NCBI GenBank assembly: GCA_964404215.1
Contig: CAYOJF010000055.1
Location: forward strand, 1 to 26,416
DNA from: an uncultured Aureispira sp.
GTDB lineage: Bacteria; Bacteroidota; Bacteroidia; Chitinophagales; Saprospiraceae
DNA length: 26,416 bases
Reading direction: 5' to 3'
Shown here: piece by piece, positions 139-26,301 of the stretch
How positions within the stretch are numbered: the first letter of the stretch is position 1
Layout: each line of letters starts with the position of its first letter
Notes under the pieces: model-generated
Databases searched by the model: none
Seen by the model: only the letters and a program-made list of their open reading frames with translations
Told to the model about the DNA's origin: nothing
Program-made: the position numbers and the translations under genes

Positions 139-3100
139 TCAGATGACAGTAGCCTCTTCAATCAAAGGTAACTCTACAATAAAGTCGGTTCCTTTTCCAA
201 CTTCTGATTCAAAATAAATACGTCCTTTAGCCATTTCTACAATTTTTTGTGACATGGCTAAACCAATGCCAGTACCAGATGATTTAGTGGTAAAGTTAGG
301 GACAAAAATATCGTCAGCTTGTTCTTCAGGTATCCCGGTGCCGTTATCCTTGACGGTGATAATCGCAGTGGTACTAGTGGCTACTAATTGAATTTGTATA
401 ATACCAGGTTGTTCTTCAGGGATAGCTTGTACGGCATTTTTGAGTAGATTATTGAGTACACGCATTATCTGCGTTTTATCTGCGAACACAAAACACTCCT
501 TTTCGGACATATCCAATGATATTTGCATATTTTCCTCTTCTCTAAATAATTCATAAGCATTACTTACTAGCGTATTGAGATGCAACTTTTCGTTGTTGGC
601 AGTAGGCATTTTTGCGAAATTAGAGAACTCAGAAGCAATATGTGCTAAGCTATCAATCTGTTCGATCAAGGCAGAAGCTACTCGATTAACCATTTTTTGA
701 GCTTTCTCAGGCTTGGTATTAACTACTCGTTGGAGTAGTTGGATGTTGAGTTTCATGGGGGTGAGCGGGTTTTTGATCTCATGGGCGACTTGTTTCGCCA
801 TTTCTCGCCAAGCAGATTCCCGTTGCGAGCGGGTGAGTTTTTTTGTATTTTCTTCTAGCTCCTTAATCATGTGATTGTATCGCTCGACCAATTCACCGAT
901 TTCATCTTTATTTTTCCATTCGATAGGTTCATTTTTTTGTCCCAGTTGTACTTTATCCAATTTTTCGCCAATAACAGATAGTGGATTGGTGACAGAACCA
1001 GCTATAATAAAGGCTGCCACCCCTGCTAATAAAAGGAATAGAACATAGACATTAAGCAAGGCTCCTAAGAACTTGATAACATCCTGTGAGCCTAGGTTGG
1101 TATTACTAGCCAAATCATAGGGTAGATTCAAAAAAGCAATCGTATTACCTTCCTTATCTTTGAGCGGAACATAGGCGGAGAGGTATTCAAACTCATTAAT
1201 AATTTCGGACTGAATAACCTTACTTTGTTGTTCTTGTTTTAGCTTAATGAAGGCAGAGGGATTCATTTTTTTGCTAATCAGATGCCGCTCAAAAATAACC
1301 TTTTCAGAAGAAGAAATCAAATCACCATTGAGAGCATAGATGTTGACATCTATTTTATGAATATCAGCTAATTCTTTAGCATCAGGTAGTTTGATAATAG
1401 AATCTTGACTTTGGTTGAGTTGCCAGCTAGCTGTTTTAGCAGTTGTAGTCACTTTACGGAGTAGTCTTGATTTGTGATAATCCATATAATCATAGCGATA
1501 GTATAGAATGGTAATCAATGCTATCGCAATAAAAGAGGATAGCGTTACGAGCAAGATTCCTTTTTGAATTTGTTCTCTCAGGGAGTTTTCAAACTTAATT
1601 TGAAGCAATTCCTTTTTAGTTAGTTGACGGAATAGTACATCAACTAATTGAACACTTAGGAGTAGGAATAGTCCAAAACAGAATAAATACGCAAAAACTG
1701 AAATACTTTGATAGAAATTAAAACGAGGCAATTGGATAATACTAATATTGTTGGGCTGTTCTTTATCTCTATAGAGGAGGTAGTTAAATTGTCCATCATT
1801 GGTAGCTTTTATAATCAAAAAACTTCCAGCTTTTGGTTTAGGAAAGTTGTAAGGTAGTTCTGCTTTGAATATAGAACCATTGGTAGCCACACGACTATCA
1901 AATTTATATAAAGCATAGGTGTAATCAGCAAAGATGTTTTCTAGACGATCTTTGTTTCGACTGAGTAACTCTACGTAAATATTAGATTTTTGGAAACTCT
2001 TTTTAGGAGTCAATTCTATAACAATATAACCTAATAAGGATTCTCCTTGATAAAGAGGAATCTTAGCGATATAGGAAAAATTTCCACTCGGGTTGGAGTA
2101 AAAGCTTAGAAATTCACTATTAGTCTTGTAACTATAACGCAACAGTGTCGCAATTTCATCATAGGGTCTTTCTTCTCCTCTATATTCTTTGTTTTCATTG
2201 GTGTAAATGTGGGCACTGTAATCATATTTTCCGAAAAAATAGTTGTCCAAATAGCGATAGGTAAGCAGGTTGACAGCTTGGCGACGAGGAGATGGTGATA
2301 GTGGGTTGTTGAGAGATATTTTGAGTGACCCATCTGTCATGATTTGAGGGGCCAAAACATTGAAAATATTCTCTGTGTTAAGATCTCGTTCAAAAGCTAA
2401 TGCTTTTGCATAATCTTTTCGGAGATTTATCTTTTTATCAGCATTGGCATTTTCAATGACTAAGGTCAATAGAGCAGCGAAAAACAGAATCCAAATACTG
2501 ACCCAAGCTAAAGAGGTAGCTTTGTTTTGAGTATATCGGTAGAGTAATAGTAATTGGACCGCTCCAAAAAAACAAATTAATAGGATATCTATAGGAGGGA
2601 ATTCAAAATATGTAATTGCTACTACCGTTAGTAGTAATACCCCACCAAAACTCATGATTCGCTCTGCTGGCGATACCTTAAATGTATTGGTAGCAACAGT
2701 GGTGTAATAGGCAATAAAAAATTGAGAAATTGTCAACATACCAATCCCCAATAAAGCCCAGAAAGTAAATGTTTCTATTTGAGCAAAATTATCAAAGTTA
2801 AATGATAAATAAGAAGAAGAAATGATGTCTCGAACCGCAAATTGGAGAAATGAAATGCCACCGAAAATAGCACCAAAGTTAAGGGCTACCAACGTCAAAC
2901 GTTGTTTTTTTTCTTTAGGAATAAGATAGTTTTTCTGTAACTCTCGTCCAATGAAAATAGCGGTAATCGTCAGTAAGGTCATGTCGATTAAGAAATCACC
3001 CAAAGAGTATAACCAAGTATTGTTGGTGTCAGAGACTCTATAGTTGAAAATACGGTAATCATAAGCTAACCTAGGAAAGTCGTAGAATATACTGAGTAGT

Positions 3101-3894
3101 CTCAGAAAACTAACTCCCAGTACAAATGTACCTAGTGCTGTAAACAGATACCTACGTTTAGCGATCTGGGCACTGATGGTGTACAGGAATAGGATAAGTC
3201 CTATACTACCCAATAAATACAATAAACCTGCGAATAGAATATACCATGCATGAGGACTATTTTCCTGAGCTTTTACGTATAGAAGCGTATTGCCTGCTTT
3301 ATCTTTGATACTATAATTATTTTTTTTCTTGCTAATCGCCGTTTGTTTTGAAAAATCAATAGGCATCAGAGGAAAGTAATCTTGTAAATAATTATTGGTG
3401 ATAGAATAGTGTTTATATGTGGGAATAAGGGCAACTAGGTTGTAGTAATAGATTTTACCATCTATTTTGAACTCATAAGGACGTGTTTTTTTTAGATAAA
3501 TGGATTCCGCAAGTTCATATTTTTCATCACTAGCTTTGTCGGTGTATTGAATATGGGATTTGAAAGGCAGTGTTTTGTTATTGTTCCAGTAAATAATAGA
3601 ATCGTTATCATTATAAATAATAACAGTGTAGGGTTTGTCAATATATTTTTGGATGGTATCATTAAGAATATATCCTTCAATGGCGTTGACTAAAAATGTA
3701 CTATTGCTAAATAATTCTGAAATTTCTTCTTCTGTCCGATGTAACTCTGCTTCTAAATCAATTTGATTTTGAATAATATCCAAGTCACTTTTAGCGACTT
3801 GTTCGATCATACTTCCTAGACCAAAACACACTAGTGAAAGCAGTAGAAATAGACTGATTTTAGATTTAGTTAGTTGGAGGAAGGTGTTTTTCAT
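139..3894 (-). CDS. Multi-pass membrane sensor histidine kinase. N-terminal signal anchor, then a ~190-aa extracytoplasmic domain. About 8 TM helices follow in a 7TM-receptor-like block, then two more membrane-bracketed segments. The C-terminus has HisKA and HATPase_c domains. There is no receiver domain.
   Basis: ATG start at 3892-3894 (revcomp atgaaaaacacc = MKNT). H-box 'AHEIKNPLTPM'. N-box 'NLLKNAVQAI'. G1 'VKDNGTGIP'. G2 'GTGIGLAMSQKIVE'. HAMP-like 'GELVERYNHMIKELEE'. Many hydrophobic 20-aa segments between residues ~215 and 480, plus three more around residues 760-960. The 7TMR-DISM-like assignment is by architecture only. Confidence 0.88.
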   Translation of the reverse strand: MKNTFLQLTKSKISLFLLLSLVCFGLGSMIEQVAKSDLDIIQNQIDLEAELHRTEEEISELFSNSTFLVNAIEGYILNDTIQKYIDKPYTVIIYNDNDSIIYWNNNKTLPFKSHIQYTDKASDEKYELAESIYLKKTRPYEFKIDGKIYYYNLVALIPTYKHYSITNNYLQDYFPLMPIDFSKQTAISKKKNNYSIKDKAGNTLLYVKAQENSPHAWYILFAGLLYLLGSIGLILFLYTISAQIAKRRYLFTALGTFVLGVSFLRLLSIFYDFPRLAYDYRIFNYRVSDTNNTWLYSLGDFLIDMTLLTITAIFIGRELQKNYLIPKEKKQRLTLVALNFGAIFGGISFLQFAVRDIISSSYLSFNFDNFAQIETFTFWALLGIGMLTISQFFIAYYTTVATNTFKVSPAERIMSFGGVLLLTVVAITYFEFPPIDILLICFFGAVQLLLLYRYTQNKATSLAWVSIWILFFAALLTLVIENANADKKINLRKDYAKALAFERDLNTENIFNVLAPQIMTDGSLKISLNNPLSPSPRRQAVNLLTYRYLDNYFFGKYDYSAHIYTNENKEYRGEERPYDEIATLLRYSYKTNSEFLSFYSNPSGNFSYIAKIPLYQGESLLGYIVIELTPKKSFQKSNIYVELLSRNKDRLENIFADYTYALYKFDSRVATNGSIFKAELPYNFPKPKAGSFLIIKATNDGQFNYLLYRDKEQPNNISIIQLPRFNFYQSISVFAYLFCFGLFLLLSVQLVDVLFRQLTKKELLQIKFENSLREQIQKGILLVTLSSFIAIALITILYYRYDYMDYHKSRLLRKVTTTAKTASWQLNQSQDSIIKLPDAKELADIHKIDVNIYALNGDLISSSEKVIFERHLISKKMNPSAFIKLKQEQQSKVIQSEIINEFEYLSAYVPLKDKEGNTIAFLNLPYDLASNTNLGSQDVIKFLGALLNVYVLFLLLAGVAAFIIAGSVTNPLSVIGEKLDKVQLGQKNEPIEWKNKDEIGELVERYNHMIKELEENTKKLTRSQRESAWREMAKQVAHEIKNPLTPMKLNIQLLQRVVNTKPEKAQKMVNRVASALIEQIDSLAHIASEFSNFAKMPTANNEKLHLNTLVSNAYELFREEENMQISLDMSEKECFVFADKTQIMRVLNNLLKNAVQAIPEEQPGIIQIQLVATSTTAIITVKDNGTGIPEEQADDIFVPNFTTKSSGTGIGLAMSQKIVEMAKGRIYFESEVGKGTDFIVELPLIEEATVI

Positions 3895-3953
3895 AAGACA
3901 AGGTAGTGTGAAAATTAGTAGGCAATAAATACTATATGATATACTTAATTTCC

Positions 3954-5183
3954 TTATTTAGAGCCAGTATTATTACTGTTTTTAAAATAAAAATCATCTT
4001 CTACAGAAGAGCTTTCCCACGGTATTTGTTGTCCTTTGGATGATTTTCGAACGTTTTTACGTACTTGCTTAAATACATCTTCTAGGCCTAGGCTTTTTGT
4101 TCCTAGTGCTTTGAGTAGTTCTTGCGTGTAAAGTCCATTGGTTCCTTCTCCATCTAAGGCCGCAAAGCCAGGTGCGGTAGAAAAGGCAATAAATGTGTTG
4201 TAAGGGGCAGAGCCTACGGCAGCTAATCCATTGTAACTACTATATTTAGATTTTTCAAACTCTTCTTTATAAGGGTTGTCTCTACAGGCATCTAGAATAA
4301 GGATGTTCATATCATTTTCAGCATATTCAAGTTCTACCAACACCCGCCCTAAGTCAACAGATTCGAATTCTATATCTTGTGCCTTTTTGATATCAGCATT
4401 GACAGGAACTAAATAGTTGTGTCCCTCACATTGGAGCCCATGACCAGCATAATAGAATAGTCCAACACCTCCTCTTTCTTTGAGTTTTTGACCAAATTCT
4501 CTAATAGCTTTTTTAGTTGTTTTTTGATCCAAATCTGTGTAAACATAAGCATCAAAACCTGATCGTTGCAATTCTTCTGCTACAGCAATAGCGTCATTGA
4601 CGGGGTTTTTGAGTGGAGCTTGTGCATAAGCACTATTACCAATGATTAGAGCTGTCCTTTTTTGCTCTTGATCAATATTGGCAAGTGCTTTAAAATACTG
4701 CCCTACATATTTTTTGTTTGGGGGTGTTTTTTCTTTGAAAGGATCGTTACTGTCTGTATTGTCTACTGTTACTATTGTAGTAGTTTTTTCTTTTAACTTG
4801 CGTTTTAGTTTACCTTCTTTCCAGATACCTTTTTGTTCGGTTCCGTTAGCAAAGACGTAGGTTCCTTCTCCATTTTTTTTATGATTCTCATATTCACCAA
4901 TGTAAGTGTCTCCATTTGCCCACTTAAAGGTCCCATAACCATGCCTTTTGGATTTCAGCCATAGACCATTGTAAATATCTCCATTTTTATAGTGATAAAC
5001 ACCACGACCATCTGGTAGACCATTTTTAAATTCGCCAATATACTTATCGCCATTAGAATAAATATAACGTCCCTTACCATTTTTGCAGTCACCAGTGGTA
5101 CATCCATCCTGGGCTAAAACGATATTAGTACCGAGTATCATACTGAAGAGAAAAATAAAGAGTGAATGGTTGAGATGTTGCAT
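3954..5183 (-). CDS. Secreted MORN-repeat protein with a C-terminal peptidase C14 (caspase-like) domain.
   Basis: Signal peptide 'MQHLNHSLFIFLFSMILGTNIVLAQD' from the internal ATG at 5181-5183. The track ORF extends to an ATG at 5270, but that N-terminus lacks a signal-peptide n-region. At least 4 MORN repeats: 'YIYSNGDKYIGEFKNGLPDGRGVYHYKNGDIYNGLWLKSKRHGYGTFKWANGDTYIGEYENHKKNGEGTYVFANGT'. Caspase dyad: His in 'LFYYAGHGLQ' and Cys in 'ILILDACRDNP', about 50 aa apart. The preceding 'ALIIGNSAY' strand is typical of C14. Confidence 0.8.
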   Translation of the reverse strand: MQHLNHSLFIFLFSMILGTNIVLAQDGCTTGDCKNGKGRYIYSNGDKYIGEFKNGLPDGRGVYHYKNGDIYNGLWLKSKRHGYGTFKWANGDTYIGEYENHKKNGEGTYVFANGTEQKGIWKEGKLKRKLKEKTTTIVTVDNTDSNDPFKEKTPPNKKYVGQYFKALANIDQEQKRTALIIGNSAYAQAPLKNPVNDAIAVAEELQRSGFDAYVYTDLDQKTTKKAIREFGQKLKERGGVGLFYYAGHGLQCEGHNYLVPVNADIKKAQDIEFESVDLGRVLVELEYAENDMNILILDACRDNPYKEEFEKSKYSSYNGLAAVGSAPYNTFIAFSTAPGFAALDGEGTNGLYTQELLKALGTKSLGLEDVFKQVRKNVRKSSKGQQIPWESSSVEDDFYFKNSNNTGSK

Positions 5184-5290
5184 GATTAAGAGCTTATTAG
5201 ATATTATAAAATATAGAGAGAACATAGGATTTTGTATGGAAATAGTTGAAGCTAAAAATACAATTATCATTCCATTTCATTTAGTGTATT

Positions 5291-6457
5291 TTAGTCTTTT
5301 GTTTCGCTAGGAGGTCGTTCTTGTTGGATGGTGTCTTTTATTATTTTTTCAATAGGTTCGTCTATTGGAGTGAGGACATCAATTGGAGATGGATTTTCTT
5401 CCTCTTCATCTTCTAGAGTAGTTGGCTCAAGTACGGCTGTATTATTAGTAGCAGATGTACTACGTACGGCAAATGCTTTGGGCATAATCGTATATCCTCT
5501 ATAACTAGTGAGAGCCCGAATAAATTCAGCTCCTAAGAATATAATTTGAGCGGAATAGTAAACCCATACCAATACAACTATCAAAGACCCAGCAGCCCCA
5601 TAAGCAGAGATAACGGTGGCTTGTTTGAGGTATAATCCAATCAGTAACTCTCCGACCCAAAATAGGGCTGAAGTAAATAATGCACCACTCAATACATATC
5701 GCCAAGGTATTTTGACAGCAGGTAAAATACGATACAATAGTATGAAAAATAGCATGATTAAGACAATGGATAAAACAAAATTGAGTGCAACTAGAAAATA
5801 GTCAGTAAAATATTCAATGTATTTAATTAAGAACGAAAATGTAGCGGGTATTTTGCTAATAACAAACTCTTCGTTAGCACCGATGTAGTTGCTTAGTTCT
5901 AGCAAAACAGCATTCATGATAATAGAAACAATCAGTAATCCTCCCATGCTAAAAATCATTCCTAAAGATAGAAGTCGATTGATGATTGTTTGTAAAATAC
6001 TATCCCCTGTATTTTCAATTTCCCGTACCTGAAAAATCATATTGAGTGCTTCTTGCAGGGCATAAAAAAGCCCTGTTGCCACAAACATCAATAGAGAAAT
6101 ACCTAGTACCGTAGCCCACCAGTTGGTTTCTATTGTACCTGTGTTTTTGACAGCCGCTTCTATTTGGAGGGCAGCATCTTGACCTACAAAATCAACGATA
6201 GAGCCATAAATTTCTCCTTTGACAGCCGCATCTCCCAGTAAAAAACCAACTAGACCAACAATAATAATAATGATAGCTGGTAGCGAAAAAATGGTATAGT
6301 AAGCTAATGCTGCTCCTAGTCGAGATACTCGTCGTTTATTGTAGTTGTTTATGGTATCTGCTAGGACAGTATAGATTGGGTGAAACCAAAAATAGACCAA
6401 TTGATGATGGTATATTTTTGATATAAAATTCTTTATATGTTGTATCAATCTATTCAT
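5291..6457 (-). CDS. YihY/BrkB family inner-membrane protein with a C-terminal acidic extension.
   Basis: Family signature 'RLGAALAYYTIFSLPAIIII' followed by about 6 TM segments. ATG start at 6455-6457. Overlaps the upstream thiolase-like gene by 8 nt, suggesting translational coupling. Has an acidic C-terminal tail 'EDEEEENPSPIDVL'. Confidence 0.72.
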   Translation of the reverse strand: MNRLIQHIKNFISKIYHHQLVYFWFHPIYTVLADTINNYNKRRVSRLGAALAYYTIFSLPAIIIIIVGLVGFLLGDAAVKGEIYGSIVDFVGQDAALQIEAAVKNTGTIETNWWATVLGISLLMFVATGLFYALQEALNMIFQVREIENTGDSILQTIINRLLSLGMIFSMGGLLIVSIIMNAVLLELSNYIGANEEFVISKIPATFSFLIKYIEYFTDYFLVALNFVLSIVLIMLFFILLYRILPAVKIPWRYVLSGALFTSALFWVGELLIGLYLKQATVISAYGAAGSLIVVLVWVYYSAQIIFLGAEFIRALTSYRGYTIMPKAFAVRSTSATNNTAVLEPTTLEDEEEENPSPIDVLTPIDEPIEKIIKDTIQQERPPSETKD

Positions 6458-7661
6458 AACATGATTCTAACAGGATTGCTCCTCCCATTCCTAGTCCAGC
6501 CCCTGTGGCAGCAATGCCTCGTTTGATAGCAGGATCTCTTTTGATTTGATGAGCAAGAGAAACTACAAGTCTAGCAGCTCCCATACCTATAGGATTACCC
6601 ATTGAAATACAGCCTCCATTTCTATTCAGTTTTTGAGGCGAAATATTGATTTTTTTTAAAAAAAGTAAAGGTTGCAAAGCAAATGATTCATTGATTTCAA
6701 AACTATCAATACTTTTTGCATCTAAATCTATTTTTTCTAAAAGCTTTTGAGTGGCAATACTCGCACCAAAACTCATTTCGGAAGGATCACAAGCAGCAAT
6801 AGCCCAATTACTAATGATGGCTATTGGTTTTAGTTGATATTGCTGTACTATTTTTTCAGAAGCTAACAATACCATAGCAGCACCATCTCCTACTCTTGCT
6901 GCGTTTCCTGCTGTAATGTAATTCCCATCAGGGACTAATTTAGGCAATTTTGATAATAAATTTAAAGATAAGAGGCGATGTTGTTCGTCTCTTTGCCAAA
7001 CTTTATTTTTTAGATCCTGTGTGGGAATAATCTCAGTCGCCCAAGTTTGTTCTGTTAGTGCTTTTTCGTAGCGTAATCGACTATCGTGAGCGTATTGATC
7101 TTGTTGTTGTTTATCAATGTTATATTTCTGAGCGACCAATTCAGCTGTTTGAGGCATAGATAAAGGTGGACAAGTAGCATCAATAGCTGGATTAATAAAT
7201 CTCCACCCAATCATACTGTCTACTTGCTCTCCAGTTATTTTGTTTTTTACTAGAGGACTGCGGCTCATACTTTCTACCCCTCCAGCGAGTACACATTCGT
7301 TTTCGCCTGTCCAGATAGTTCTCGCACCACTTACAATAGCTTCTAAGCCAGAGGAGCAAAGAGAGTTGAGGGTAACAGCAGTAGTAGAAAACGGGAGTTT
7401 TGCTAACAGACTCGCCATACGAGCAATATTCCTATTGTCTTCTCCTGCTTGATTAGCACACCCTAACAATACCTGATCAATTATGGTACTGGGGAGCTTA
7501 TTGGTTTGCAAAATTGAGGTGATAACAGACGCCGCCATATCATCAGGACGTTGATTGGAGAGGATGCCATTGAGTTTCCCAATAGGAGTACGTAGAGCAT
7601 CTATTAAGTATATTTTACTGTTTTTATTGTTCAATTCTACTAAAATATTAATTTTGCACAA
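6450..7661 (-). CDS. Thiolase-fold protein (thiolase-like) that appears to lack two canonical catalytic residues.
   Basis: Thiolase N-terminal 'IDALRTPIGKLNG'. Nucleophile loop 'NSLCSSGLEAI'. 'INESFALQ' matches the NEAF Asn motif. Where thiolases have 'GHP(I/L)GA(S/T)G' this protein has 'GNPIGMGAAR' (His to Asn). Where they have 'CIGGG(M/Q)G' it has 'TGAGLGMGGA' (no Cys). The start is TTG at 7659-7661. An alternative in-frame TTG lies at 7634. No ATG occurs near the conserved N-terminus. Confidence 0.75.
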   Translation of the reverse strand: MCKINILVELNNKNSKIYLIDALRTPIGKLNGILSNQRPDDMAASVITSILQTNKLPSTIIDQVLLGCANQAGEDNRNIARMASLLAKLPFSTTAVTLNSLCSSGLEAIVSGARTIWTGENECVLAGGVESMSRSPLVKNKITGEQVDSMIGWRFINPAIDATCPPLSMPQTAELVAQKYNIDKQQQDQYAHDSRLRYEKALTEQTWATEIIPTQDLKNKVWQRDEQHRLLSLNLLSKLPKLVPDGNYITAGNAARVGDGAAMVLLASEKIVQQYQLKPIAIISNWAIAACDPSEMSFGASIATQKLLEKIDLDAKSIDSFEINESFALQPLLFLKKINISPQKLNRNGGCISMGNPIGMGAARLVVSLAHQIKRDPAIKRGIAATGAGLGMGGAILLESCYE

Positions 7662-9092: not shown

Positions 9093-12000
9093 ATGGCTGA
9101 TCCAATTAATATCAAGGAAAAAATCAAAGAAGGTAAAGTTTGGGGGAAACTGAAAGATGGTTTTGGCGAGGTGAAGTTGAGAGCGATTAATGGAGCAAAA
9201 GAATTCAGTGAGGCAGTTAACGATGTTCCAGTAAGCATTAATAACACACTCAAGGGGCTGTCTAATGCGGGAAATACACCAGAGTCAAAACAAAACGCTT
9301 CAGAAGAAGAACAGCCAAACCAAGAGGTAGAAGTAAAGAAACCAGAGAGTAAGGTAGAACCTATTGGTGGCCCAGAAGGTAGTAGTTTTGATTCAGAGGG
9401 TAAAGCACCACCTGCTTCAGTGACAGTAAAAGGAACACAGGAAGAAAAAGGGATAGTCGCAACAGAGAATCCTGTCGAAGAAGAGCAAAAAAAGGAAGCA
9501 GTTCCTGTTAGTGAAAAAGTGGAAGGAGAAAAAGAAGAGGCAGTCGTAGAAGCTGATACAGGGATAGAGGGGAGTAAACTAAATATGGAGGAAGAGAAAG
9601 ATGAAGAAAGTAATGAAGGTAGTGACCAAAAAGGAGAATTGGAAGATATCAAAAAAATGGTTTCGGAATCAACAGAGAGTAATGCTGAAACGAAAGGTAT
9701 CATGCCTGATAAAGAAAATTCACATGGTACGCCAATAGGTGCTTCCAATAATGAGGATGTTGTCAAAAAAGAAGAAGATAGAATACTAGATGAGATTACT
9801 TTTGGAGAAGAAGATGTGGAACCCGAGAAAGAAGAGTCAGTGATTTCAGATAACAAAGGTCCAGGTATGGGAGCTCAGCTTCAGAGTGAAGAGTCAGCTG
9901 AAGAAGAGGCGGAGGATGAAGTGGAAGAAGAAATTGATGAATATGAAGTTAATATTGCTGCTGGTGTTCGCGAAGGTAAAAATGTAGGACGTAGTAGTGG
10001 TTTCGGTGCAATTATTCTTTTTGATAAAATGAATGGAGAAGAAACAGGGGATGATGAAACAGGAGCTCAGAATGAAGCAGAGGAGAATAAAATGACGAAA
10101 CCATTTCCTGCTGAGGATTCAGATGGAGCTAATTGGAAAATGGCTAAATTTGAAGAGGCTAAGAAGATAGACCAAGATGCAGAAGGATATTATGATGGAT
10201 TTGTAACTGGGTACAACCAAGGATACAATGAAGGGGTTGCTCTAAAGCAATCTATGGCAGCACAGGAGGCTAACAAAGCCCAAGAAGCTAAGTTGGCAGA
10301 TCCTAATTACAAGGCTGGTTCAGAGTTGGGGCAAATGACAGGAGCTTTAGCAGCCCAAAACAAAACAGATTTAGAGTATACCTCTGCTAGTGGTGAAAAT
10401 TATAAGACACAGGTAGCAGACGCTAGAACCAAAGCTTTTCAGGGACAAGATCCTAATGGGAATGTAATGGGCGAAGAAGAACAAGGGGTTAAGTTTAAGA
10501 GCGGTTTTGTAGAAGAGTATAATAAAACTTATAAAGTAGCAGAAGAAAAACAACGAAAAGGACCTAGTCATGAAGAGAGGTTAGCAGACCCTGATTTCCG
10601 AAAGGGATACGAGCAAGGCAATCAACTAGGAAGAGGAGAAGGTGATACAGAAGCTCTGCAAAAAGTAAAAGAGTCTCACTTTACACCAGCTGCAGCCCAA
10701 AAAGAAAAATCAGATGAAATCTACAAGAAGGAGAGAGGTGGTTTTATCTATGGTTTTAACGCAGCTAATTATCAACTTAAAGCCGAAAAAGAAGCTGCAG
10801 AAGCAGCAGAACATAAGAAAAAGATTGCTGATCCATTTTTTAAGCTAGGATATGCTGCGGGGAATATGAAAGGTGTTTTATTAGCTGTATTTCCTGGGGA
10901 AGATATTTTATCAAAGTCAGATGCTGAGCTTGAGGAAGCAGGGGTGGGTTTTAAATTACCAAAGCATATCAGAGATGCTATAGCAGTAGATGGAATACCA
11001 GAGGATACCACTGCTGTCGCTACCAGAGCAGAAGAGGGGACTGAGGAATATGACAAGCAGAAAGAATATTTTGCAGAAGCTTATTACTCAGGTCAACGCA
11101 AGGGATATACTACAGGGAATCAACAAAAAGCTCATTATAAAGCTAATGCTTACAGATTGAATCCAGACTATGTTAATTTCATGAAAAACACAGTTCCTGT
11201 GAACGTTTCAGAAATGGAGGAGGGGAAAACTGAACAGCATCTTAACGTAGGGCAAGTGATTGCTTATGGTAAGTATGAAATTAATAAACTAGATGCTGAT
11301 GATCCTAGTAAGGCAGAGCTACAGGGGCTACTAAGTACAGCTGAAAACCAAGTAAGTGCCAATGATTCAGAGCATTATCAGGCGGCTTATAGAGATTCGT
11401 ATAATGATTTGACTAAGCAAATTACGACTGGAAGTGGAAAATTTGGAAAAGCGTTGAAATCTGGAGAGAGATTTCAGCAATATATGGGGAAATCGACCGA
11501 GGAGAAACATGCTTATGAACTTGGATATGGAATAGCACAAAAACAACTAGAGAAAGAAGCGACTATTAATAAATTAAAACGTAAGTCAAGAGAAGAACGT
11601 CAAGAATTGAAAGCAGCCCTAATGGGATCCATTCATACAGCTTTAGAGAAGGCCGAAGCTCAATTAATCAGCTCTTATGGATACGATAAAGAGACAGATG
11701 CCAAGGCGATTAAAAAGACTCATCAGTTTTTGATTAATGGGTATAATGCTACCATTTATAATAGAGATAAGGAATCAGAGGAGACTAAAATGGGCAATAA
11801 TGAACGAGAGTTGCAGGAAAAACTCGCAGATGAACTTAGTGACGCTAAACTTGATCAGCAAGGGGCAAAAGAGGCAGAAAGAATTTTCAAACAAGGGGCA
11901 GCTGATGGATATAACCATGCTTTTAGCTTCTACAAAGAATGTCTTGATAAGAAGGTGGAAGATTTACCTAGATATTATGATGATACAAAGAAATTTGAAA

Positions 12001-15000
12001 ATGCAAAAGAAAATGTTGGAAAACAACTATTAGCCATAAAAAAGGAATCAGGGGGAGATTATCTGAGAGGAAAGAATGATATTAAATACGGTAGAATACT
12101 TGGATTTTACACGCAAGGGTATAATTTCTCTTCTGAAGTGAGTCTTGATCAAGGAATGAGTGCCCCAATTGAGAACAGTAAAAGTACGACTAGTGATAAA
12201 AACTTTGGAGCAAAGAAAGGTGATTTAGATGGTCGGTCTTATGCATTAGGATATATTTGTGGCAAAAAAATAGCTCAAAATAGAGATAAGAAAGATTTTG
12301 ATGAAGTTAGGTTTAAGAAAAATTTTGAAAAGAAAGCTGCTCAAGAAGAAGCCTTTAAAAAAGGTTTTATAGATAGTGAATACCAGGCAAGCTATGATAA
12401 TTTTGCTGATACAATGATCGCTAAGGATAGTAGTGTTGCAGAAGTTTTTGCGGAATCTTCGGATACTAGTGGCGTATCAGGTACAAAGGCATCTAATGAT
12501 GCAGATACTGCAGCTAAAATATGGGAAGTAATTTCTGCTTATAATGCAGGAACAGTTGCCAAGGATGCTGAAATACAACAATTTAGTTATTTTGATGGTA
12601 AATCAGATTTTGATGTAGATATTAATGCTCGTACTGCTGAAGATTTGATTCATAATAAGGACACTTACATAGAACAAGCAATAGATCGGAAAAGACGAGA
12701 TTCAACTCAGAGTTATAGACGTGATCTAGCAAGTGAAAAGGGACTAGATTATTATAGGTTGGGAAGTAGTGAAAAGGCTAAAATTAATAAAGAGGCAGAT
12801 ACTTTACTAGATACTTACATGAAGGAGTTTGGAACCGCTTATCGTTCCAAAGTAGCTATTGTTATGCAGGTTTCAGCAGGTATTTCTTTGGAAAACTGGT
12901 ACAAGGCTGTAGGTTGTAGGGATGGATTTGTGCGAATTGTAGGGAGTAATGAAAAATTACCTTCTGAACTCAAAGATATAGTAGTGGAAGATGAAGCAAA
13001 TTTGGATAAGCAAAACCCACACTATATTCAAGGAAATGAAGAAGGAGCAGCTCTTGGTATCAAGTTTAAAACAGGATTGATTACAGAAGATGAATTGAAT
13101 GAAAATTTGGATGACTCTTCGTATGTAGACACAGGATACAAGGAAGCCAAGACACAGGGGGCTCAAGCAGGTAAGTTTGCAGCTTTGCAAGAGAATTATT
13201 ATGAACAAATTCCAACACCATATGAAGACGTTTCTGCTGAAACAGGAGATATTCCTCAAGAGATTAAAGATGTTTACTATGAGAGTTATTGGAAAACAAG
13301 AGATAGTAAAGCAGGGGAAATAGAAGGTCTGAAAGCTGCAGCATCAGAAGGACAAGAGGATGATTATGCAATCAAAGATCTGTATGTAGTATTAGAAGAT
13401 AATACTTCTAAAACAGAAAAAGGTAAGAGAGGAGTACGTTATGCGGATATATTTGAAAATTCTTTTGTCAACGCAAGAGAGGCAGGAAAGATTAACGGGA
13501 ATGCGGAAGAATTACTCCAAGAAAAACAAGGGGAAGAAGTAGAAAATATCCAAACAAGAGATCAAAAAATAGAGCAAAAGGCAATAGAGGTGGCAATTAA
13601 AGATGCTCAAGATAAAAGTCAGCCTAAAGAACCTAGCCAAGATTATAGAGCGGCAATGGGATTGAAAGCTTCTATGACTCATGAAAATACGGTTTCAAAA
13701 GAATTAGAACTTTCATATATAGATCACTATTGGGCGGCTAGAGATGAAAAAGCAGGCGAGATACAGGGAATACAAATGGTACTTGATGCACAAAAAGGAC
13801 GTCATGCAAAAGCAGAAGATTATGCAGATCCATTAGATACACTTGTAGTGAAGGAAGCAGAAAATGAGGGTAGTAATGGTGGAAGTATGATGACTGATAA
13901 ATTAACGGATGTCAGTAGTGCCGATAGTCGAACTATTGGTGGGAAGAGAAAAGGTATTGGTGCTGATTCTTCTGCTAGTAAAACTATTGGAGGTGGAAAA
14001 GGAGGCAGCTTAGATAGCCCTATTAGTGACAGAGTAGACACAGACAACCCTATGTCAATTCATTATGTCTACAAGCCGACAAAAAAGGGGTATCATAATA
14101 AAGAGTGGTTTGACATTGCATTTGAAGAAGGGAGGAAAAAGGCAGAGAAAATCCAAGAAGACAAAAATGCATTACAACATTTGGCATGGGAGGCTAAAAC
14201 TGCTAATGCTGCAGATGCTGCCGAGCATATTCAAAAGAAAAAAGGAGAGGAGATTGATGTTATTTATAAAAAGGCTTTTGAAGAGGCTGAACGACAGGCT
14301 AGTAAGGCGGCATTAGAGGGAGCTTATTTTATAGCAGCAGAAGAAATGGGCGTGAAAGAAAAGTTGGAGGAATTGAAAAATTCAGGACAACTAGAGCAAA
14401 AGCACCCTAGATTATATGAATTGATGGGACTTAAGGGAAAAGATAATGGAGATACTAATATCAATGCAAAAGGAATTGGTGGAGGTGTGCAGGAAAAAGA
14501 AGAGGAGGGAGGCTTTTTTGGTTTTTCCATGTCTTCTATTGTGGATACGATTAAAGATTTTCTTTCTCCTGATAAGATACACGAACGAATTCGGCAGGCA
14601 CTAGAAGGTGTGGAGCTAGAGGGGGAATATGAAGGAGATGAGGAAAGAGGAATGATAGGTGAAGATGATTTTCGGTTTAGGGGGGAAGTATCTTACAAAG
14701 TAGGATATAATGATATGGGAATGATGCAAAAAGCGATTATTTCTACTAACTATAATAAAATTTTTGAACAACAAAAAAATGCGGCTAAAATGCAAGCAAC
14801 CACTGACTTGACAGAGGTTTTTATGTTTAATGATACAGGGGATTTATCAACGTCGAATACAGTAGGAGAAGGTAGCTCAGATAGTGAACAAGAAGAAGGG
14901 GCTAATGATGCAGTACAGGATTTGGCAGATGCTCTCAATAAGGAAGAAGAAAAAAATACAGATGTTAGAGATGTTCGATTCAATACTTTACCTATTATTA

Positions 15001-15866
15001 AGGTATTTCAGGAACAAGAACAGTTAATAGAAACAACACAGGGGAAAGTGGCTAGTATTCGAAATCGAGTATGGGATTTGGATGATGAGCTATTCCGTAT
15101 AGAAGATACGTTACTGACAGGAGATAACCGATTGGCGGAGGTGAATAAGGAAATTGATACTTTGAATGCTCAAAAACCATTGAAAGTAGCTCAGCAGAAA
15201 GAGTTGAGAAGTCTGAAATTAGAAAAGAAAGCTCTAGAAAAGGATAAGAAAAAGGGTGATACTAATGTTAGTCGATTAACAGAAGAACTCAACAGAGAAA
15301 AAGGTTATATTAGTGATACAGCACTTGATATAGATAATTTCCTTAAGAATCGACTCAAGTTTAGAACTAGAGCTGGTGCTGATACAACGAATGAAATTTT
15401 AGATTACTTAGATGTATTTATTGAACGATTGCAGGTAACAGGGCAGTTTGGTTATAATGAAACTGGTGTCAAATTGAATGGTGGAGGTGTTTTGATTGTA
15501 GAAAAAAATGCTGAAGATGTTTATACGGGAACTAGTGTCATAGTTAGCAAAGGAGATTTTACTTTCAAAGCAAGTGGACTAGAGTATAACGAAGATAAAA
15601 ATCGTCTGATTTTGTCAGGAGGTAGTGCTGTGATCCCGAAACTAGAAGGTGCAAAAAATAGTCGTGATAAAGCTAATTATGATTTTGATGGACTTAGTTT
15701 TGATTTAAACCAAGGGGTTTTCTTACAGTTGAAATTACAACAAGGGAAGTTGCGAGCAGGAGCGGTACCAATGAGTACGGGAACACGTTCTGCGGCACCA
15801 CAGCAAGAGAAGCTCAATCCTTCTGTTCCACAGAATACACCTACTAAAACAGATACAACGACATAG
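9093..15866 (+). CDS. Giant (2257 aa) highly acidic, repeat-rich low-complexity protein. No signal peptide. Putative partner or cargo of the downstream MVP-like protein.
   Basis: ATG at 9093. Uninterrupted 6774-nt ORF. Residues ~1-330 are E/K/P/V/S-rich and look disordered ('EVEVKKPESKVEP', PEVK-like). Residues ~360-1100 carry about 12 copies of an aromatic-Gly motif: 'GYYDGFVTGYNQGYNEG', 'FRKGYEQGNQLGRG', 'GFIYGFNAANYQ', 'FFKLGYAAGNMKG', 'AYYSGQRKGYTTGNQQ', 'YELGYGIAQKQ', 'LINGYNATIYN', 'ADGYNHAF', 'ILGFYTQGYNF', 'YALGYICGKK'. Three of these are preceded by '(L/I)ADPx(F/Y)'. Internal duplication: 'YYESYWKTRDSKAGEIEGL' vs 'YIDHYWAARDEKAGEIQGI'. Gly-rich linker 'TIGGKRKGIGADSSASKTIGGGKGGS'. 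Coiled coil near the C-terminus: 'LEKKALEKDKKKGDTNVSRLTEELNREKG'. Final beta-rich ~150-aa domain. Confidence 0.85.
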   Translation: MADPINIKEKIKEGKVWGKLKDGFGEVKLRAINGAKEFSEAVNDVPVSINNTLKGLSNAGNTPESKQNASEEEQPNQEVEVKKPESKVEPIGGPEGSSFDSEGKAPPASVTVKGTQEEKGIVATENPVEEEQKKEAVPVSEKVEGEKEEAVVEADTGIEGSKLNMEEEKDEESNEGSDQKGELEDIKKMVSESTESNAETKGIMPDKENSHGTPIGASNNEDVVKKEEDRILDEITFGEEDVEPEKEESVISDNKGPGMGAQLQSEESAEEEAEDEVEEEIDEYEVNIAAGVREGKNVGRSSGFGAIILFDKMNGEETGDDETGAQNEAEENKMTKPFPAEDSDGANWKMAKFEEAKKIDQDAEGYYDGFVTGYNQGYNEGVALKQSMAAQEANKAQEAKLADPNYKAGSELGQMTGALAAQNKTDLEYTSASGENYKTQVADARTKAFQGQDPNGNVMGEEEQGVKFKSGFVEEYNKTYKVAEEKQRKGPSHEERLADPDFRKGYEQGNQLGRGEGDTEALQKVKESHFTPAAAQKEKSDEIYKKERGGFIYGFNAANYQLKAEKEAAEAAEHKKKIADPFFKLGYAAGNMKGVLLAVFPGEDILSKSDAELEEAGVGFKLPKHIRDAIAVDGIPEDTTAVATRAEEGTEEYDKQKEYFAEAYYSGQRKGYTTGNQQKAHYKANAYRLNPDYVNFMKNTVPVNVSEMEEGKTEQHLNVGQVIAYGKYEINKLDADDPSKAELQGLLSTAENQVSANDSEHYQAAYRDSYNDLTKQITTGSGKFGKALKSGERFQQYMGKSTEEKHAYELGYGIAQKQLEKEATINKLKRKSREERQELKAALMGSIHTALEKAEAQLISSYGYDKETDAKAIKKTHQFLINGYNATIYNRDKESEETKMGNNERELQEKLADELSDAKLDQQGAKEAERIFKQGAADGYNHAFSFYKECLDKKVEDLPRYYDDTKKFENAKENVGKQLLAIKKESGGDYLRGKNDIKYGRILGFYTQGYNFSSEVSLDQGMSAPIENSKSTTSDKNFGAKKGDLDGRSYALGYICGKKIAQNRDKKDFDEVRFKKNFEKKAAQEEAFKKGFIDSEYQASYDNFADTMIAKDSSVAEVFAESSDTSGVSGTKASNDADTAAKIWEVISAYNAGTVAKDAEIQQFSYFDGKSDFDVDINARTAEDLIHNKDTYIEQAIDRKRRDSTQSYRRDLASEKGLDYYRLGSSEKAKINKEADTLLDTYMKEFGTAYRSKVAIVMQVSAGISLENWYKAVGCRDGFVRIVGSNEKLPSELKDIVVEDEANLDKQNPHYIQGNEEGAALGIKFKTGLITEDELNENLDDSSYVDTGYKEAKTQGAQAGKFAALQENYYEQIPTPYEDVSAETGDIPQEIKDVYYESYWKTRDSKAGEIEGLKAAASEGQEDDYAIKDLYVVLEDNTSKTEKGKRGVRYADIFENSFVNAREAGKINGNAEELLQEKQGEEVENIQTRDQKIEQKAIEVAIKDAQDKSQPKEPSQDYRAAMGLKASMTHENTVSKELELSYIDHYWAARDEKAGEIQGIQMVLDAQKGRHAKAEDYADPLDTLVVKEAENEGSNGGSMMTDKLTDVSSADSRTIGGKRKGIGADSSASKTIGGGKGGSLDSPISDRVDTDNPMSIHYVYKPTKKGYHNKEWFDIAFEEGRKKAEKIQEDKNALQHLAWEAKTANAADAAEHIQKKKGEEIDVIYKKAFEEAERQASKAALEGAYFIAAEEMGVKEKLEELKNSGQLEQKHPRLYELMGLKGKDNGDTNINAKGIGGGVQEKEEEGGFFGFSMSSIVDTIKDFLSPDKIHERIRQALEGVELEGEYEGDEERGMIGEDDFRFRGEVSYKVGYNDMGMMQKAIISTNYNKIFEQQKNAAKMQATTDLTEVFMFNDTGDLSTSNTVGEGSSDSEQEEGANDAVQDLADALNKEEEKNTDVRDVRFNTLPIIKVFQEQEQLIETTQGKVASIRNRVWDLDDELFRIEDTLLTGDNRLAEVNKEIDTLNAQKPLKVAQQKELRSLKLEKKALEKDKKKGDTNVSRLTEELNREKGYISDTALDIDNFLKNRLKFRTRAGADTTNEILDYLDVFIERLQVTGQFGYNETGVKLNGGGVLIVEKNAEDVYTGTSVIVSKGDFTFKASGLEYNEDKNRLILSGGSAVIPKLEGAKNSRDKANYDFDGLSFDLNQGVFLQLKLQQGKLRAGAVPMSTGTRSAAPQQEKLNPSVPQNTPTKTDTTT
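10180..11200 (+). repeat. Four degenerate ~85-aa tandem protein repeats within the giant gene.
   Basis: Each unit has the form [G(F/Y)xxG(F/Y)xxxY], about 20 aa, then [(L/I)(A/N)DPx(F/Y)xxGYxxG]. Units begin at 'GYYDGFVTGYNQGY', 'GVKFKSGFVEEYNKTY', 'GGFIYGFNAANYQ' and 'YFAEAYYSGQRKGY'. The repeat is degenerate at the nucleotide level. Confidence 0.5.
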
Positions 15867-15896
15867 AATATATTTATCTGCTATGGTTGATGAAAT

Positions 15897-15931
15897 GTAG
15901 TTAGTACGAAAGTGCTAGCTACTTTTTTTTT
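15897..15931 (+). terminator. Rho-independent terminator directly after the giant gene.
   Basis: GUAGUUAGUA (15897-15906), CGAAAG loop, UGCUAGCUAC (15913-15922). The stem is 10 bp with two G-U wobbles. It is followed by T9 (15923-15931), 31 nt after the TAG stop. Confidence 0.6.
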
Positions 15932-15966
15932 GAAAAATATTTTGGACGGGAACTAATAGATGTTAT

Positions 15967-15991
15967 ACTTAGTTTAAATAATAAACTAAGT
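15967..15991. promoter_or_regulatory. Perfect 10-bp inverted repeat (candidate operator, possibly a 5'UTR hairpin) in the promoter region of the MVP-like gene.
   Basis: ACTTAGTTTA (15967-15976), spacer aataa, TAAACTAAGT (15982-15991). It lies 41 nt upstream of the ATG at 16032. A Bacteroidetes -7-like 'TAGATTTA' sits at 16003-16010. Confidence 0.3.
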
Positions 15992-16031
15992 TATTGTTAG
16001 TATAGATTTATAACCCAAAAAATAACAAAAT

Positions 16032-25113: not shown

Positions 25114-26301
25114 CTAAACTAACTCTAATGCTAGGGCAGAAGCACCACCACCACCATTACAGATACCTGCTAGACCACGTTTGCCACCTTTGTGCTTTAG
25201 AGCAGATAGCAAAGTGATGATGATACGACATCCAGATACACCAATAGGGTGTCCCATAGATACGGCACCGCCAAGTACATTCACTTGGTCATGAGATAGA
25301 CCTAGTTTTCTCATATTAGCGACAGCTACTACAGAGAAAGCTTCATTGATTTCATACAAATCAAAATCTTCTACTTTTAATCCAGCTTTTTGAGCAGCTT
25401 TTGGCATGGCAAGAGCAGGAGTAGTAGTAAACCAAATTGGTTCTTGAGCAGCATCAGCGAAACTCAATAATTTAGCGATAGGCTTTAGTCCTAATTCTTC
25501 TACTTTTTCTTTGCTCATCAATACCATAGCGGCAGCACCATCATTGATTTTAGAAGCATTGATAGCAGAAACAGTACCATCTTTTTTGAAGACAGCACGT
25601 CCTTTAGCTACAGAAGCATAATCGCTAATACGACCATTAGTTACTTCTTCATCTTTTGTGATGATGATAGGATCTTTACGACGCTGAGGTACACTTACTG
25701 GTACAATCTCATCATCAAACCAACCATTTTCATAAGCAGCTCTAGCACGCTCATAAGAAGCGAGAGCATATTTATCTTGATCTTCTTTAGTAATGTTTTC
25801 TCCTTCTGCACAAACTTCTCCACAAACACCCATCATATCACCAGTATAAGGATCTTGTAGACCATCTCTAGAAATAGCATCTAGGATTTGACCATTACCA
25901 TAACGAATACCTGTACGTCCAGACGGAATATAGTGTGGTGCTTGAGACATGCTCTCCATACCACCTACTACTACTACATCATTGTCTCCCAACATAATAG
26001 ACTGAGCACCTAACATAGTTGCTTTCATACCAGAAGAGCATACTTTATTGATAGTGGTACAAGGGGTTTTTGTAGAAATACCAGAGGCTAAAGCTACTTG
26101 CTTAGCTGGTGCTTGCCCTGTATTTGCTGTCAAAACACAACCCAAATAAACTTCTTCTACTTGATCGCCAGAAATACCAGCACGTTCGATAGCTGCTGAT
26201 ACTGCCGTTTTACCCAAGTCAATAACATTGACAGAGGATAAAACTCCTCCAAGGTTTCCGATAGGTGTTCTGGCAACAGATACTACATATACTTCTTTCA
26301 T
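25114..26301 (-). CDS. Acetyl-CoA C-acetyltransferase (thiolase II), canonical.
   Basis: ATG at 26299-26301. 'MKEVYVVSVARTPIGN'. Cys nucleophile 'NKVCSSGMKA'. 'NEAFSVVA'. His 'MGHPIGVSGCRI'. Second Cys 'GICNGGGGASALALELV'. Confidence 0.92.
   Translation of the reverse strand: MKEVYVVSVARTPIGNLGGVLSSVNVIDLGKTAVSAAIERAGISGDQVEEVYLGCVLTANTGQAPAKQVALASGISTKTPCTTINKVCSSGMKATMLGAQSIMLGDNDVVVVGGMESMSQAPHYIPSGRTGIRYGNGQILDAISRDGLQDPYTGDMMGVCGEVCAEGENITKEDQDKYALASYERARAAYENGWFDDEIVPVSVPQRRKDPIIITKDEEVTNGRISDYASVAKGRAVFKKDGTVSAINASKINDGAAAMVLMSKEKVEELGLKPIAKLLSFADAAQEPIWFTTTPALAMPKAAQKAGLKVEDFDLYEINEAFSVVAVANMRKLGLSHDQVNVLGGAVSMGHPIGVSGCRIIITLLSALKHKGGKRGLAGICNGGGGASALALELV

Follow-up and report, generated by a model that had tools for sequence, protein, structure and literature searches.

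The window, the whole stretch of DNA analysed here, covers 26,416 nucleotides of a contig from an uncultured Aureispira species. On its minus strand, at 3954..5183, lies a gene for a predicted exported protease of 409 amino acids, a MORN-repeat member of family C14 of the paracaspase/metacaspase-like kind, delimited using the list of open reading frames, Pfam and the public gene call P0001, which is the identical 409-residue protein. From N to C terminus it comprises a signal peptide, approximately four MORN repeats, a linker of approximately 45 residues and a full-length Peptidase_C14 domain. A longer reading frame, starting at 5270, was rejected since its 29 extra residues are absent from all orthologues and the public call has 409 residues; it would also overlap a conserved upstream motif described below.

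Upstream lie genes for a YihY/BrkB-family inner-membrane protein (5291..6457, minus strand; Pfam Virul_fac_BrkB, 8e-43) and a thiolase (6450-7661; Pfam). Downstream, a 59-bp spacer (3895..3953, minus strand) runs from the caspase stop codon to the start codon, at 3894, of a co-directional gene (139..3894, minus strand) for a multi-pass sensor histidine kinase of 1251 amino acids, with approximately 12 hydrophobic segments followed by HAMP, HisKA and HATPase_c domains (Pfam). From its domains and context we class this kinase as an orphan and do not judge it part of the protease system. The first-pass annotation, made by reading the sequence, had placed all of these genes and the gap correctly; it had also reported that the window lacks a response regulator, and we find none among the 14 large open reading frames. 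The whole window gave no match to an Rfam RNA family.

The signal peptide covers residues 1-24 (MQHLNHSLFIFLFSMILGTNIVLA; 5112..5183, minus strand). It was judged by inspection, from sequence features and conservation: residues 4-18 form the hydrophobic core, and at least 90% of the 36 orthologues compared keep the Ala24|Gln25 junction. With Gln at +1, this junction fits the Q-rule that Bacteroidetes follow in signal peptidase I cleavage (PMC5837995), and cleavage is predicted there. The N-terminal hydrophobic segment of prokaryotic metacaspase-like proteins has also been read as a signal peptide (PMC3501461). Two other export classes were considered and rejected. The protein is no lipoprotein, having no lipobox ([LVI][ASTVI][GAS]C); the residues before Cys28 are Q-D-G, as against A-Q-C in some orthologues. 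Nor does it look like cargo of the type IX secretion system (T9SS), as it stops 10 residues past the C14 domain; no C-terminal sorting domain (Por_Secre_tail, approximately 70-100 residues) was found in Pfam or NCBIfam searches, and the NCBIfam search of the protease returned one weak match only. The protein is thus most likely Sec-exported and periplasmic, retention being favoured over release because both the T9SS C-terminal domain and the lipobox are missing.

The MORN module spans residues 26-129 (4797..5108, minus strand), as delimited by phmmer, Foldseek and the hairpins of the AF2 model. The MORN profile PF02493, which describes tandem 23-residue repeats of the form YxGxW..GxG, matches in three stretches (E = 9.8e-20; 69.6 bits, cutoff 22.5). 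Canonical repeats, three in all, begin at Y48, Y71 and Y94, with one half-repeat on the N-terminal and another on the C-terminal side, and the model has five beta-hairpins with pLDDT above 90; the 'four or more' repeats counted at first pass are roughly right, with approximately four a fair figure. A pair of cysteines, Cys28 and Cys33 (GCTxGDC), opens the module and is invariant among the 36 orthologues. The module matches MORN1 crystal structures with E = 8e-43 in phmmer, and MORN1 6t4d with 2e-11 and an rmsd of 1.4 in Foldseek. It is followed by a variable linker at residues 130-174 (4662..4796, minus strand), which differs in length and sequence between orthologues and is modelled at low confidence (pLDDT 44-61 across residues 131-160).

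The catalytic domain, residues 175-399 (3987..4661, minus strand), is supported by Pfam, by a profile search against the PDB and by Foldseek. Its Peptidase_C14 match covers the entire profile, positions 1-233 of 233, at E = 1.3e-39 (136.8 bits, cutoff 21.4), so that the domain search proposed by the first-pass annotation recovers both families it had named. The catalytic histidine, His248 (CAT, 4440..4442, minus strand), lies in YYAGHG, and the catalytic cysteine, Cys300 (TGT, 4284..4286, minus strand), in ILDACRDNP. They align to the dyad of the paracaspase MALT1, H415 and C464 (the latter in LLDMCR), and are invariant among the 36 orthologues; YYAGHG and LDACRDNP match the YYAGHG and LDMCR of MALT1 residue for residue, which bears out the complete dyad claimed at first pass. 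D197, D298 and D344 fall in the alignment columns of D365, D462 and E500 of MALT1, which we take to be the acidic S1 residues of the published structures; the same 36 orthologues all have D197 and D298, and at least 90% of them have D344. Given this acidic S1 pocket, cleavage after Arg or Lys is predicted. The whole-protein AF2 model has a pLDDT of 85.4. In Foldseek it matches MALT1 at 1.3e-16, with TM 0.79 to the caspase-only chain 3v4o_A, and caspases 3, 6, 7 and 11 at approximately 1e-10; the profile search against the PDB places MALT1 at 7e-20. By sequence and model, the protein is a predicted cysteine endopeptidase of family C14, clan CD, with the alpha-beta fold of caspases and hemoglobinases, nearest to the paracaspases, metacaspases and orthocaspases.

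MALT1 of human and mouse (PDB 3v4o, 3uo8, 8v4x) is the best match for the catalytic domain in both sequence and structure, sharing YYAGHG, a near-identical L-D-x-C-R and counterparts of all three acidic S1 residues. The identity is approximately 23% over the fold, and the two proteins differ in setting: MALT1 is a cytoplasmic protein with death, Ig and Ig3 domains whose activation takes place in the CBM complex, whereas the protease here would be exported, carries MORN repeats and has no Ig3. The N-terminal module is 36-42% identical to eukaryotic MORN1 of Plasmodium, Toxoplasma and Trypanosoma (6t4d, 6t6q, 6t4r), with rmsd values mostly of 1.1-1.7 Å over approximately 95 residues. MORN1 proteins are cytoskeletal scaffolds consisting of MORN repeats only; in contrast, the bacterial protein has some four repeats fused to a protease, is predicted to be exported and has a Cys-Cys cap that MORN1 lacks. 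The gingipains of Porphyromonas are likewise cysteine proteases of clan CD that Bacteroidota export and that cut after Arg or Lys, a likeness that is functional only: they belong to family C25 and are surface-anchored through a T9SS C-terminal domain, for which the present protein has no equivalent, and they appear among the matches of none of our searches.

Homologues are abundant. A search gave 7377 matches at E <= 1e-5; among the best 120 of these, C14 was present in all 120 and MORN also in all but one. The protein is a single conserved orthologue across the Saprospiraceae within this very large MORN-C14 family of Bacteroidota, and its orthologues in Aureispira and Saprospira are labelled 'caspase family protein' at NCBI. 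As early as 2016, Table 1 of PMC4933709 listed the architecture 'MORN x N | metacaspase' for bacteria of the Baltic Sea, and from those proteins ours does not differ in any essential way. With the prokaryotic metacaspase-like/orthocaspase proteins it shares the order of parts (N-terminal MORN repeats, then C14), an intact His-Cys dyad, an N-terminal hydrophobic segment and an origin in Bacteroidota. The 'uncommon arrangement' of the first-pass annotation is therefore overstated as regards the protein, since MORN-C14 proteins number in the thousands, and a further member of this catalogued, exported class is of little weight as a discovery. What is new here is the analysis of the S1 pocket, the Cys pair, the Q-rule site, the upstream element and the synteny; the Arg/Lys specificity, the Q-rule site, the Cys28-Cys33 cap and the flexible linker offer starting points for experiments. 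We found nothing relevant in the literature on Aureispira and caspases.

Could such a protease be released from the cell for feeding or predation, with its MORN repeats binding prey or cell-surface material? Both Aureispira and Saprospira move by gliding and attack other microbes. The protein is predicted to be exported, and its distant paralogues adjoin other exported peptidases (M43, M23, and C1 with DUF4384). Metacaspases of Bacteroidetes have also been speculated to help degrade phytoplankton polymers (PMC4933709). We nevertheless think this role unlikely: with neither a T9SS sorting domain nor a lipobox the protein lacks any recognised means of crossing the outer membrane, and very strong conservation (a mean column identity of 72% for the catalytic domain among orthologues), single-copy orthology and a housekeeping-like locus better fit a specific endogenous substrate.

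The sequence upstream of the gene points to control of its own. Approximately 77-91 nt before the ATG, and 17 nt past the YihY stop codon, lies a conserved element, TGGAATGATAATTGT (5260..5274, minus strand), a candidate sigma-54-type -24/-12 promoter. It is the sole intergenic match within the window. In 12 loci the exact 13-mer is present a single time each, immediately ahead of the caspase orthologue in every case, and relaxed forms precede the caspase gene in L003-L005, L007, L012-L014, L016 and L088; the sequence around the element is not conserved, and the element stands 30 to approximately 350 nt before the ATG, depending on the locus. The sigma-54 consensus has GG at -24 and GC at -12 with 10 bases between (TGGCAC-N5-TTGC). 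The conserved upstream element, TGGAAYGAWARTTG, resembles it in keeping TGG, the G at position 7 of the consensus, the spacing and TTG; at -12 the likeness is weak, with T, A or G in the clade in place of the C, and the canonical form is found in L016 (TGGAATAAAATTTGCA) and in the paralogue L020.2 (TGGTAATAGAATTGCA). A primary-sigma reading of the motif was rejected, as no conserved TAnnTTTG -7 box was seen by eye at the right spacing after TTG; a scan for sigma-70 promoters and terminators gave counts at shuffle level, with a consensus that does not apply to Bacteroidota. The element is retained in orthologues that lack both the kinase and YihY as neighbours, and the caspase gene thus appears to be its own regulatory unit. 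Since the sigma-54-like element accompanies the gene independently of its neighbours, it points to an envelope protease whose expression is activator-dependent and condition-specific, and these proteases may perhaps be switched on by a dedicated activator. In another species of Bacteroidota, sigma-54 promoters drive genes for envelope stress, protein quality control and exported proteins (PMC9723704).

The first-pass annotation had paired the protease with the membrane sensor. Such a functional unit, in which the protease would process the periplasmic domain or ligand of the kinase, or the kinase would control the protease, is suggested by the arrangement in the window, where the genes share a strand and no terminator-like hairpin is found in the 59-bp spacer; given so short a gap and no terminator detected, the two genes may be co-transcribed in this genome. 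The large predicted extracytoplasmic loops of the kinase could be reached by a periplasmic protease. The nearest NCBIfam models for the kinase are of the LIC_11548, AtoS and ZraS type (all below cutoff), and one orthologue is named NtrY at JGI; because kinases with this type of core partner sigma-54 activators, and the caspase gene has a sigma-54-like element, a regulatory link may exist. The adjacency is direct in four of 12 informative close-clade loci (the window/L081, L001, L009 and L010), and in L009 and L010 it is kept although the kinases are only 46-57% identical. In another four (L002, L003, L004 and L012) the kinase follows within 3 kb, with one to three unrelated genes inserted at the junction (a dioxygenase, a BlaI/BlaR-like gene and one other). 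In the remaining four (L006, L007, L011 and the complete Aureispira anguillae genome) there is no kinase within 5-10 kb downstream, and at nine of nine more distant orthologous loci (L013-L019, L088, L089) no kinase homologue neighbours the caspase gene. Since some relatives do show the adjacency, the pairing is not contradicted in the strict sense of an adjacency conserved nowhere; the overall pattern speaks against functional coupling.

Other evidence also weighs against the two genes being partners, and we hold a functional unit to be improbable. No caspase gene neighbours any of three kinase homologues elsewhere, at 38% and about 25% identity; the search on the kinase side, with a word index, covered 28 proteins, a thin sampling. 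In L002-L004 a conserved motif of its own lies upstream of the kinase gene, whichever gene precedes it, and the element upstream of the caspase gene stays with that gene where the kinase is absent. No response regulator was found near the kinase at any related locus, its neighbours there being judged by eye from their sequences. Among the neighbours of the caspase gene YihY is conserved most widely, lying next to that gene in L001, L003-L012, L015, L082 and L088, and conservation of the DUF4293-thiolase-YihY block upstream equals or exceeds that of the kinase; the adjacency is therefore no stronger than background synteny, and the pairing as such does not stand. It looks like local inheritance of gene order, not a working partnership: on these comparisons the kinase accompanies the caspase gene by synteny in part of the Aureispira-like clade and is no obligate partner of it. 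Seen by eye, the neighbours of the kinase in related loci include PorP/SprF-like, enoyl-CoA hydratase-like, OmpA-like and TPR-CHAT-like genes.

We favour the reading, with a probability of roughly 0.7, that the gene encodes a Sec-exported MORN-C14 protease forming its own regulatory unit, with the kinase merely a syntenic neighbour. Signal peptidase I would cut the precursor between Ala24 and Gln25, leaving a mature protein that opens with a small Cys28-Cys33 loop, presumably closed by a disulfide. The beta-sheet of the MORN repeats probably serves as a module for protein-protein contact, dimerisation or targeting to the envelope, and the flexible linker of some 45 residues would join it to the catalytic domain. 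There the His248/Cys300 dyad, assigned from alignment and fold, would cleave substrates after Arg or Lys, as dictated by the acidic S1 pocket.

A more elaborate circuit would have the NtrY/AtoS-like orphan kinase act on an unlinked NtrC-type activator, which would fire the sigma-54-like promoter of the caspase gene and so produce a periplasmic Arg/Lys protease that remodels or processes envelope proteins. We regard it as a long shot. If true, the protease may also process the periplasmic domains of the kinase itself, and the whole would be a 'paracaspase' module for signalling in the bacterial envelope.

A role as an effector of programmed cell death or anti-phage defence, like the gasdermin-associated proteases or the CHAT/EACC-linked caspases, is highly improbable and was rejected: the match to the generic PADLOC 'caspase' model is weak and partial (42.8 bits), that to caspase_w_EACC1 (54.8 bits) is far below the NCBIfam NF047832 cutoff of 140, the protein is predicted to be exported whereas caspases of conflict systems work inside the cytoplasm, none of the loci has a partner of the NTPase, gasdermin, EACC or CRISPR kind, the locus is stable, its neighbours being conserved, of housekeeping type and unlike a defence island, and the Gabija-like gene pair found a few kb downstream in A. 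anguillae accompanies a transposase in that one genome only.

The caspase gene lies at 3954..5183 on the minus strand of the window and most probably (probability about 0.7) encodes a conditionally expressed periplasmic protease, Arg/Lys-specific, processing or degradative, and independent of the adjoining kinase. Starting at the ATG at 5183 it specifies 409 aa, as does the public call for the identical protein (P0001). The maximal ORF (3954..5270) was rejected as the gene: its 29 additional N-terminal residues are present in none of 35 aligned orthologues, and the extension would also cross a conserved non-coding element, so we take 5183 as the start. On the same strand, 59 bp downstream, is the 1251-aa sensor kinase (139..3894; HAMP, HisKA and HATPase_c by Pfam). 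Upstream on this strand are a YihY/BrkB membrane protein (5291..6457) and a thiolase (6450..7661; both by Pfam), whose genes overlap by 8 nt, suggesting translational coupling. ORF listing, Pfam and the sequence bear out the first-pass description of the gene and its neighbours. A second thiolase paralogue, with ~30% identity to the first, is at 25114-26301 (-).

Pfam matches Peptidase_C14 over aa 175-399 (E = 1.3e-39, profile covered completely) and MORN (E = 9.8e-20), the two domains expected from the first-pass annotation; NCBIfam gives a single weak match only. Protein anatomy was read from an alignment of 36 orthologues (50-87% identity). The N-terminus is hydrophobic at aa 4-18 and continues to a conserved Ala-Gln25 junction, which fits the Bacteroidetes ‘Q-rule’ whereby signal peptidase I leaves an N-terminal Gln exposed (PMC5837995). 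Cleavage would fall between A24 and Q25, with pyroglutamate formation to follow. Cys28 and Cys33 are invariant in the motif GCTxGDC. Such a pair at the mature N-terminus is expected of extracytoplasmic proteins, and a Cys28-Cys33 disulfide is predicted in the mature protein. The MORN module has three full repeats, from Y48, Y71 and Y94, plus half-repeats on either side, and aligns with crystal structures of the eukaryotic protein MORN1 (E = 8e-43). It is joined by a linker of variable length to the strongly conserved catalytic domain (mean column identity 72%). The N-terminus has no lipobox, and the protein stops 10 residues past the C14 domain with no type IX secretion C-terminal domain, so the periplasm is the default destination and the probable residence of the protease. 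Release from the cell for feeding or predation is unlikely.

Among solved structures the paracaspase MALT1 is the best match for the catalytic domain (1.5e-12 searching with one sequence, 7e-20 with a profile of 12 sequences). YYAGH248G aligns onto YYAGHG of MALT1 and LD298AC300R onto LLDMCR. His248 and Cys300, named as the dyad in the first pass, thereby coincide clearly with the known MALT1 dyad, H415 and C464, our reference for counting MALT1 positions. In MALT1 the S1 pocket has three acidic residues, D365, D462 and E500; their counterparts are, in order, D197 and D298, both invariant, and D344, at least 90% conserved. With all three present, cleavage after Arg/Lys is predicted, as for paracaspases, metacaspases and orthocaspases. 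A non-catalytic pseudo-protease was also considered and, judged from sequence, appears excluded by the invariance of the dyad. An AlphaFold2 model built on the orthologue alignment has a mean pLDDT of 85.4, falling below 50 only in the linker (aa 139-152) and at the extreme C-terminus. The top Foldseek matches in the PDB are MALT1 chains (1.3e-16; TM 0.79 normalised to the caspase-only chain 3v4o_A), then MORN1 (2e-11, rmsd 1.4 A), then caspases 11, 7 and 6 and CED-3. What computation shows is an exported protein of two modules, whose active site is intact and paracaspase-like and whose S1 pocket is acidic. Dimerisation activates caspase-fold enzymes such as MALT1, and the MORN repeats may be a dimerisation or targeting module; autoprocessing could occur in the less confidently modelled 305-330 loop, which has conserved basic residues.

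The protein type is ordinary, and its family is large and already known. At least 7377 homologues were found at E <= 1e-5, under the names ‘caspase family protein’ or ‘peptidase C14’. In the top 120, Peptidase_C14 is present throughout and MORN in all but one; the proteins are ~400 aa long, like the window protein, or have more repeats and 500-690 aa. For Baltic Sea bacteria, a survey of 2016 lists architectures from MORN-metacaspase through MORN x 4-metacaspase (PMC4933709), and a 2012 census judged the N-terminal helices of prokaryotic metacaspases to be probable signal peptides and counted 28 metacaspase genes in Haliscomenobacter, of the Saprospiraceae (PMC3501461). The searchable literature holds no experimentally defined role for any MORN-C14 member; the only additions made here are the residue-level predictions and a sigma-54-like upstream element. 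Three tandem paralogues (857, 654 and 775 aa) in one Bacteroidota MAG (L020, 4895-12100) point to local family expansion. Distant paralogues at L090 3330-9215 and L091 5001-7924 have other exported peptidases as neighbours (M43 with DUF4384, M23, C1 with DUF4384), a hint of envelope or extracellular protease clusters.

With one genome scanned per species, 20 loci were found at orthologue level, none outside Saprospiraceae and its close relatives; every window protein was mapped onto them and all neighbouring ORFs were clustered. The Aureispira-like clade keeps the block small ORF, DUF4293, thiolase, YihY, caspase almost everywhere, and the kinase is less constant. Of 12 informative loci in this clade, the kinase is immediately 3′ of the caspase gene in four (window/L081, L001, L009, L010), split from it by one to three unrelated genes in four (L002, L003, L004, L012), and absent within 5-10 kb downstream in four (L006, L007, L011, L082). 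The intervening genes encode a Dioxygenase_C protein, a BlaI-like repressor with a BlaR/M56-TonB_C protein, and one other. The junction is an insertion hot spot (L002 1592-2539; L003 9404-11648; L012 ~9300-11100; L082 11398-20462), which in the complete genome of Aureispira anguillae (L082) has a dioxygenase, BlaI/BlaR, an IS transposase and a Gabija-like OLD-TOPRIM/UvrD pair.

None of nine more distant orthologous loci (L013-L019, including Saprospira grandis, L088 and L089) has a kinase of the 1251-aa type. Judged from sequence, their neighbours are unrelated and housekeeping-like (e.g. SecDF, P-type ATPase, XRE regulator, heptosyltransferase), with an M15 peptidase among them (Pfam); L089 has only a small, different kinase of 338 aa, three genes upstream. 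The 960-aa sensor region of the window kinase has few homologues (28 detected), no caspase neighbour was found beside kinase homologues at 38% and ~25% identity, and at none of the loci examined does a response regulator lie beside the kinase.

The first-pass annotation had proposed that protease and kinase form one unit, in protease-linked signalling or under kinase control. In its favour, L009 and L010 keep direct adjacency despite kinase identities to the window protein of only 57% and 46%, and co-transcription is possible in the window genome, given the short gap in which a scan found no terminator-like hairpin. However, the adjacency, though kept in some relatives, is kept no better than gene order nearby; the junction is open to insertions, and the pair is confined to one clade, so conservation fails as an indication of function. 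Such a unit is improbable; the observation was accurate, its interpretation only partly supported, and the kinase is best explained as a syntenic neighbour through inherited gene order. YihY/BrkB-caspase adjacency is the best conserved neighbourhood feature, reaching orthologues at 54-58% identity (L011, L015, L088), further than caspase-kinase. Directly 3′ of the L009 kinase orthologue is a 1309-aa protein (13165-17094), which by eye seems rich in TPRs and CHAT-like at its C-terminus (HIATHG ... LSACNSG) and would then be one more protein of the caspase fold.

Comparison of upstream regions revealed a conserved element (5260-5274) containing the 13-mer GGAATGAnAATTG at 5261-5273 (-), ~78-90 nt before the caspase ATG and 17 nt past the YihY stop. 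Twelve loci each have a single exact copy of the 13-mer, in every case a short way 5′ of the caspase orthologue. A relaxed form, TGGAAYGAWARTTG, precedes most other orthologues, including those preceded by a gene other than YihY (L013, L014, L016) and the 57%-identical one in L088 (~192 nt upstream). Positions in relatives include L001 7703-7715, L009 7910-7922, L010 3060-3072, L015 7896-7908 and L082 9952-9964. Flanking intergenic sequence is not conserved, and the element is the sole intergenic match to the relaxed pattern in the whole window. Set against the sigma-54 consensus, TGGCACG-N4-TTGC, it agrees in spacing, in the TGG and TTG, and in the G at position 7. L016 (TGGAATAAAATTTGCA) and the L020.2 paralogue (TGGTAATAGAATTGCA) have the canonical GC at -12; the Aureispira clade has another base in place of this C, so assignment as a candidate -24/-12 promoter is tentative, with the odds about even. 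Protease expression would then be activator-dependent. In Flavobacterium psychrophilum sigma-54 promoters drive genes for protein quality control, envelope stress, gliding and exported proteins (PMC9723704), a type of regulon that an exported protease would fit. The element accompanies the caspase gene even without YihY or the kinase nearby, which supports a self-contained transcription unit. A separate sequence, TATGGTACAAATTATGTG, is conserved 15-20 nt upstream of the kinase start whatever gene precedes it (L002 ~3040-3066; L003 ~11795-11822; L004 ~11830-11857), suggesting a control element proper to the kinase in that sub-clade; it is not obvious upstream of the kinase in the window.

The catalytic core of the kinase resembles the AtoS and ZraS (NCBIfam) and NtrY (JGI annotation) types, whose partners are sigma-54 activators, leaving small room for a regulatory link: the orphan kinase might act through an unlinked NtrC-type activator on the sigma-54-like promoter, and the protease might remodel the envelope, possibly including periplasmic domains of the kinase. 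We consider this chain quite improbable, and a cell-death or defence effector, for a protein predicted to be periplasmic, very improbable. An independent periplasmic protease is preferred to both.

Elsewhere in the window, an 830-aa protein (16032-18524, +) matches MVP_shoulder (2e-30) and Vault_3, making it a bacterial homologue of the major vault protein known from eukaryotes. Directly upstream, a 2257-aa highly acidic protein (9093-15866, +) has no Pfam match, is syntenic in several Aureispira-like loci, and its gene is the source of the strong purine skew at 9-16 kb.
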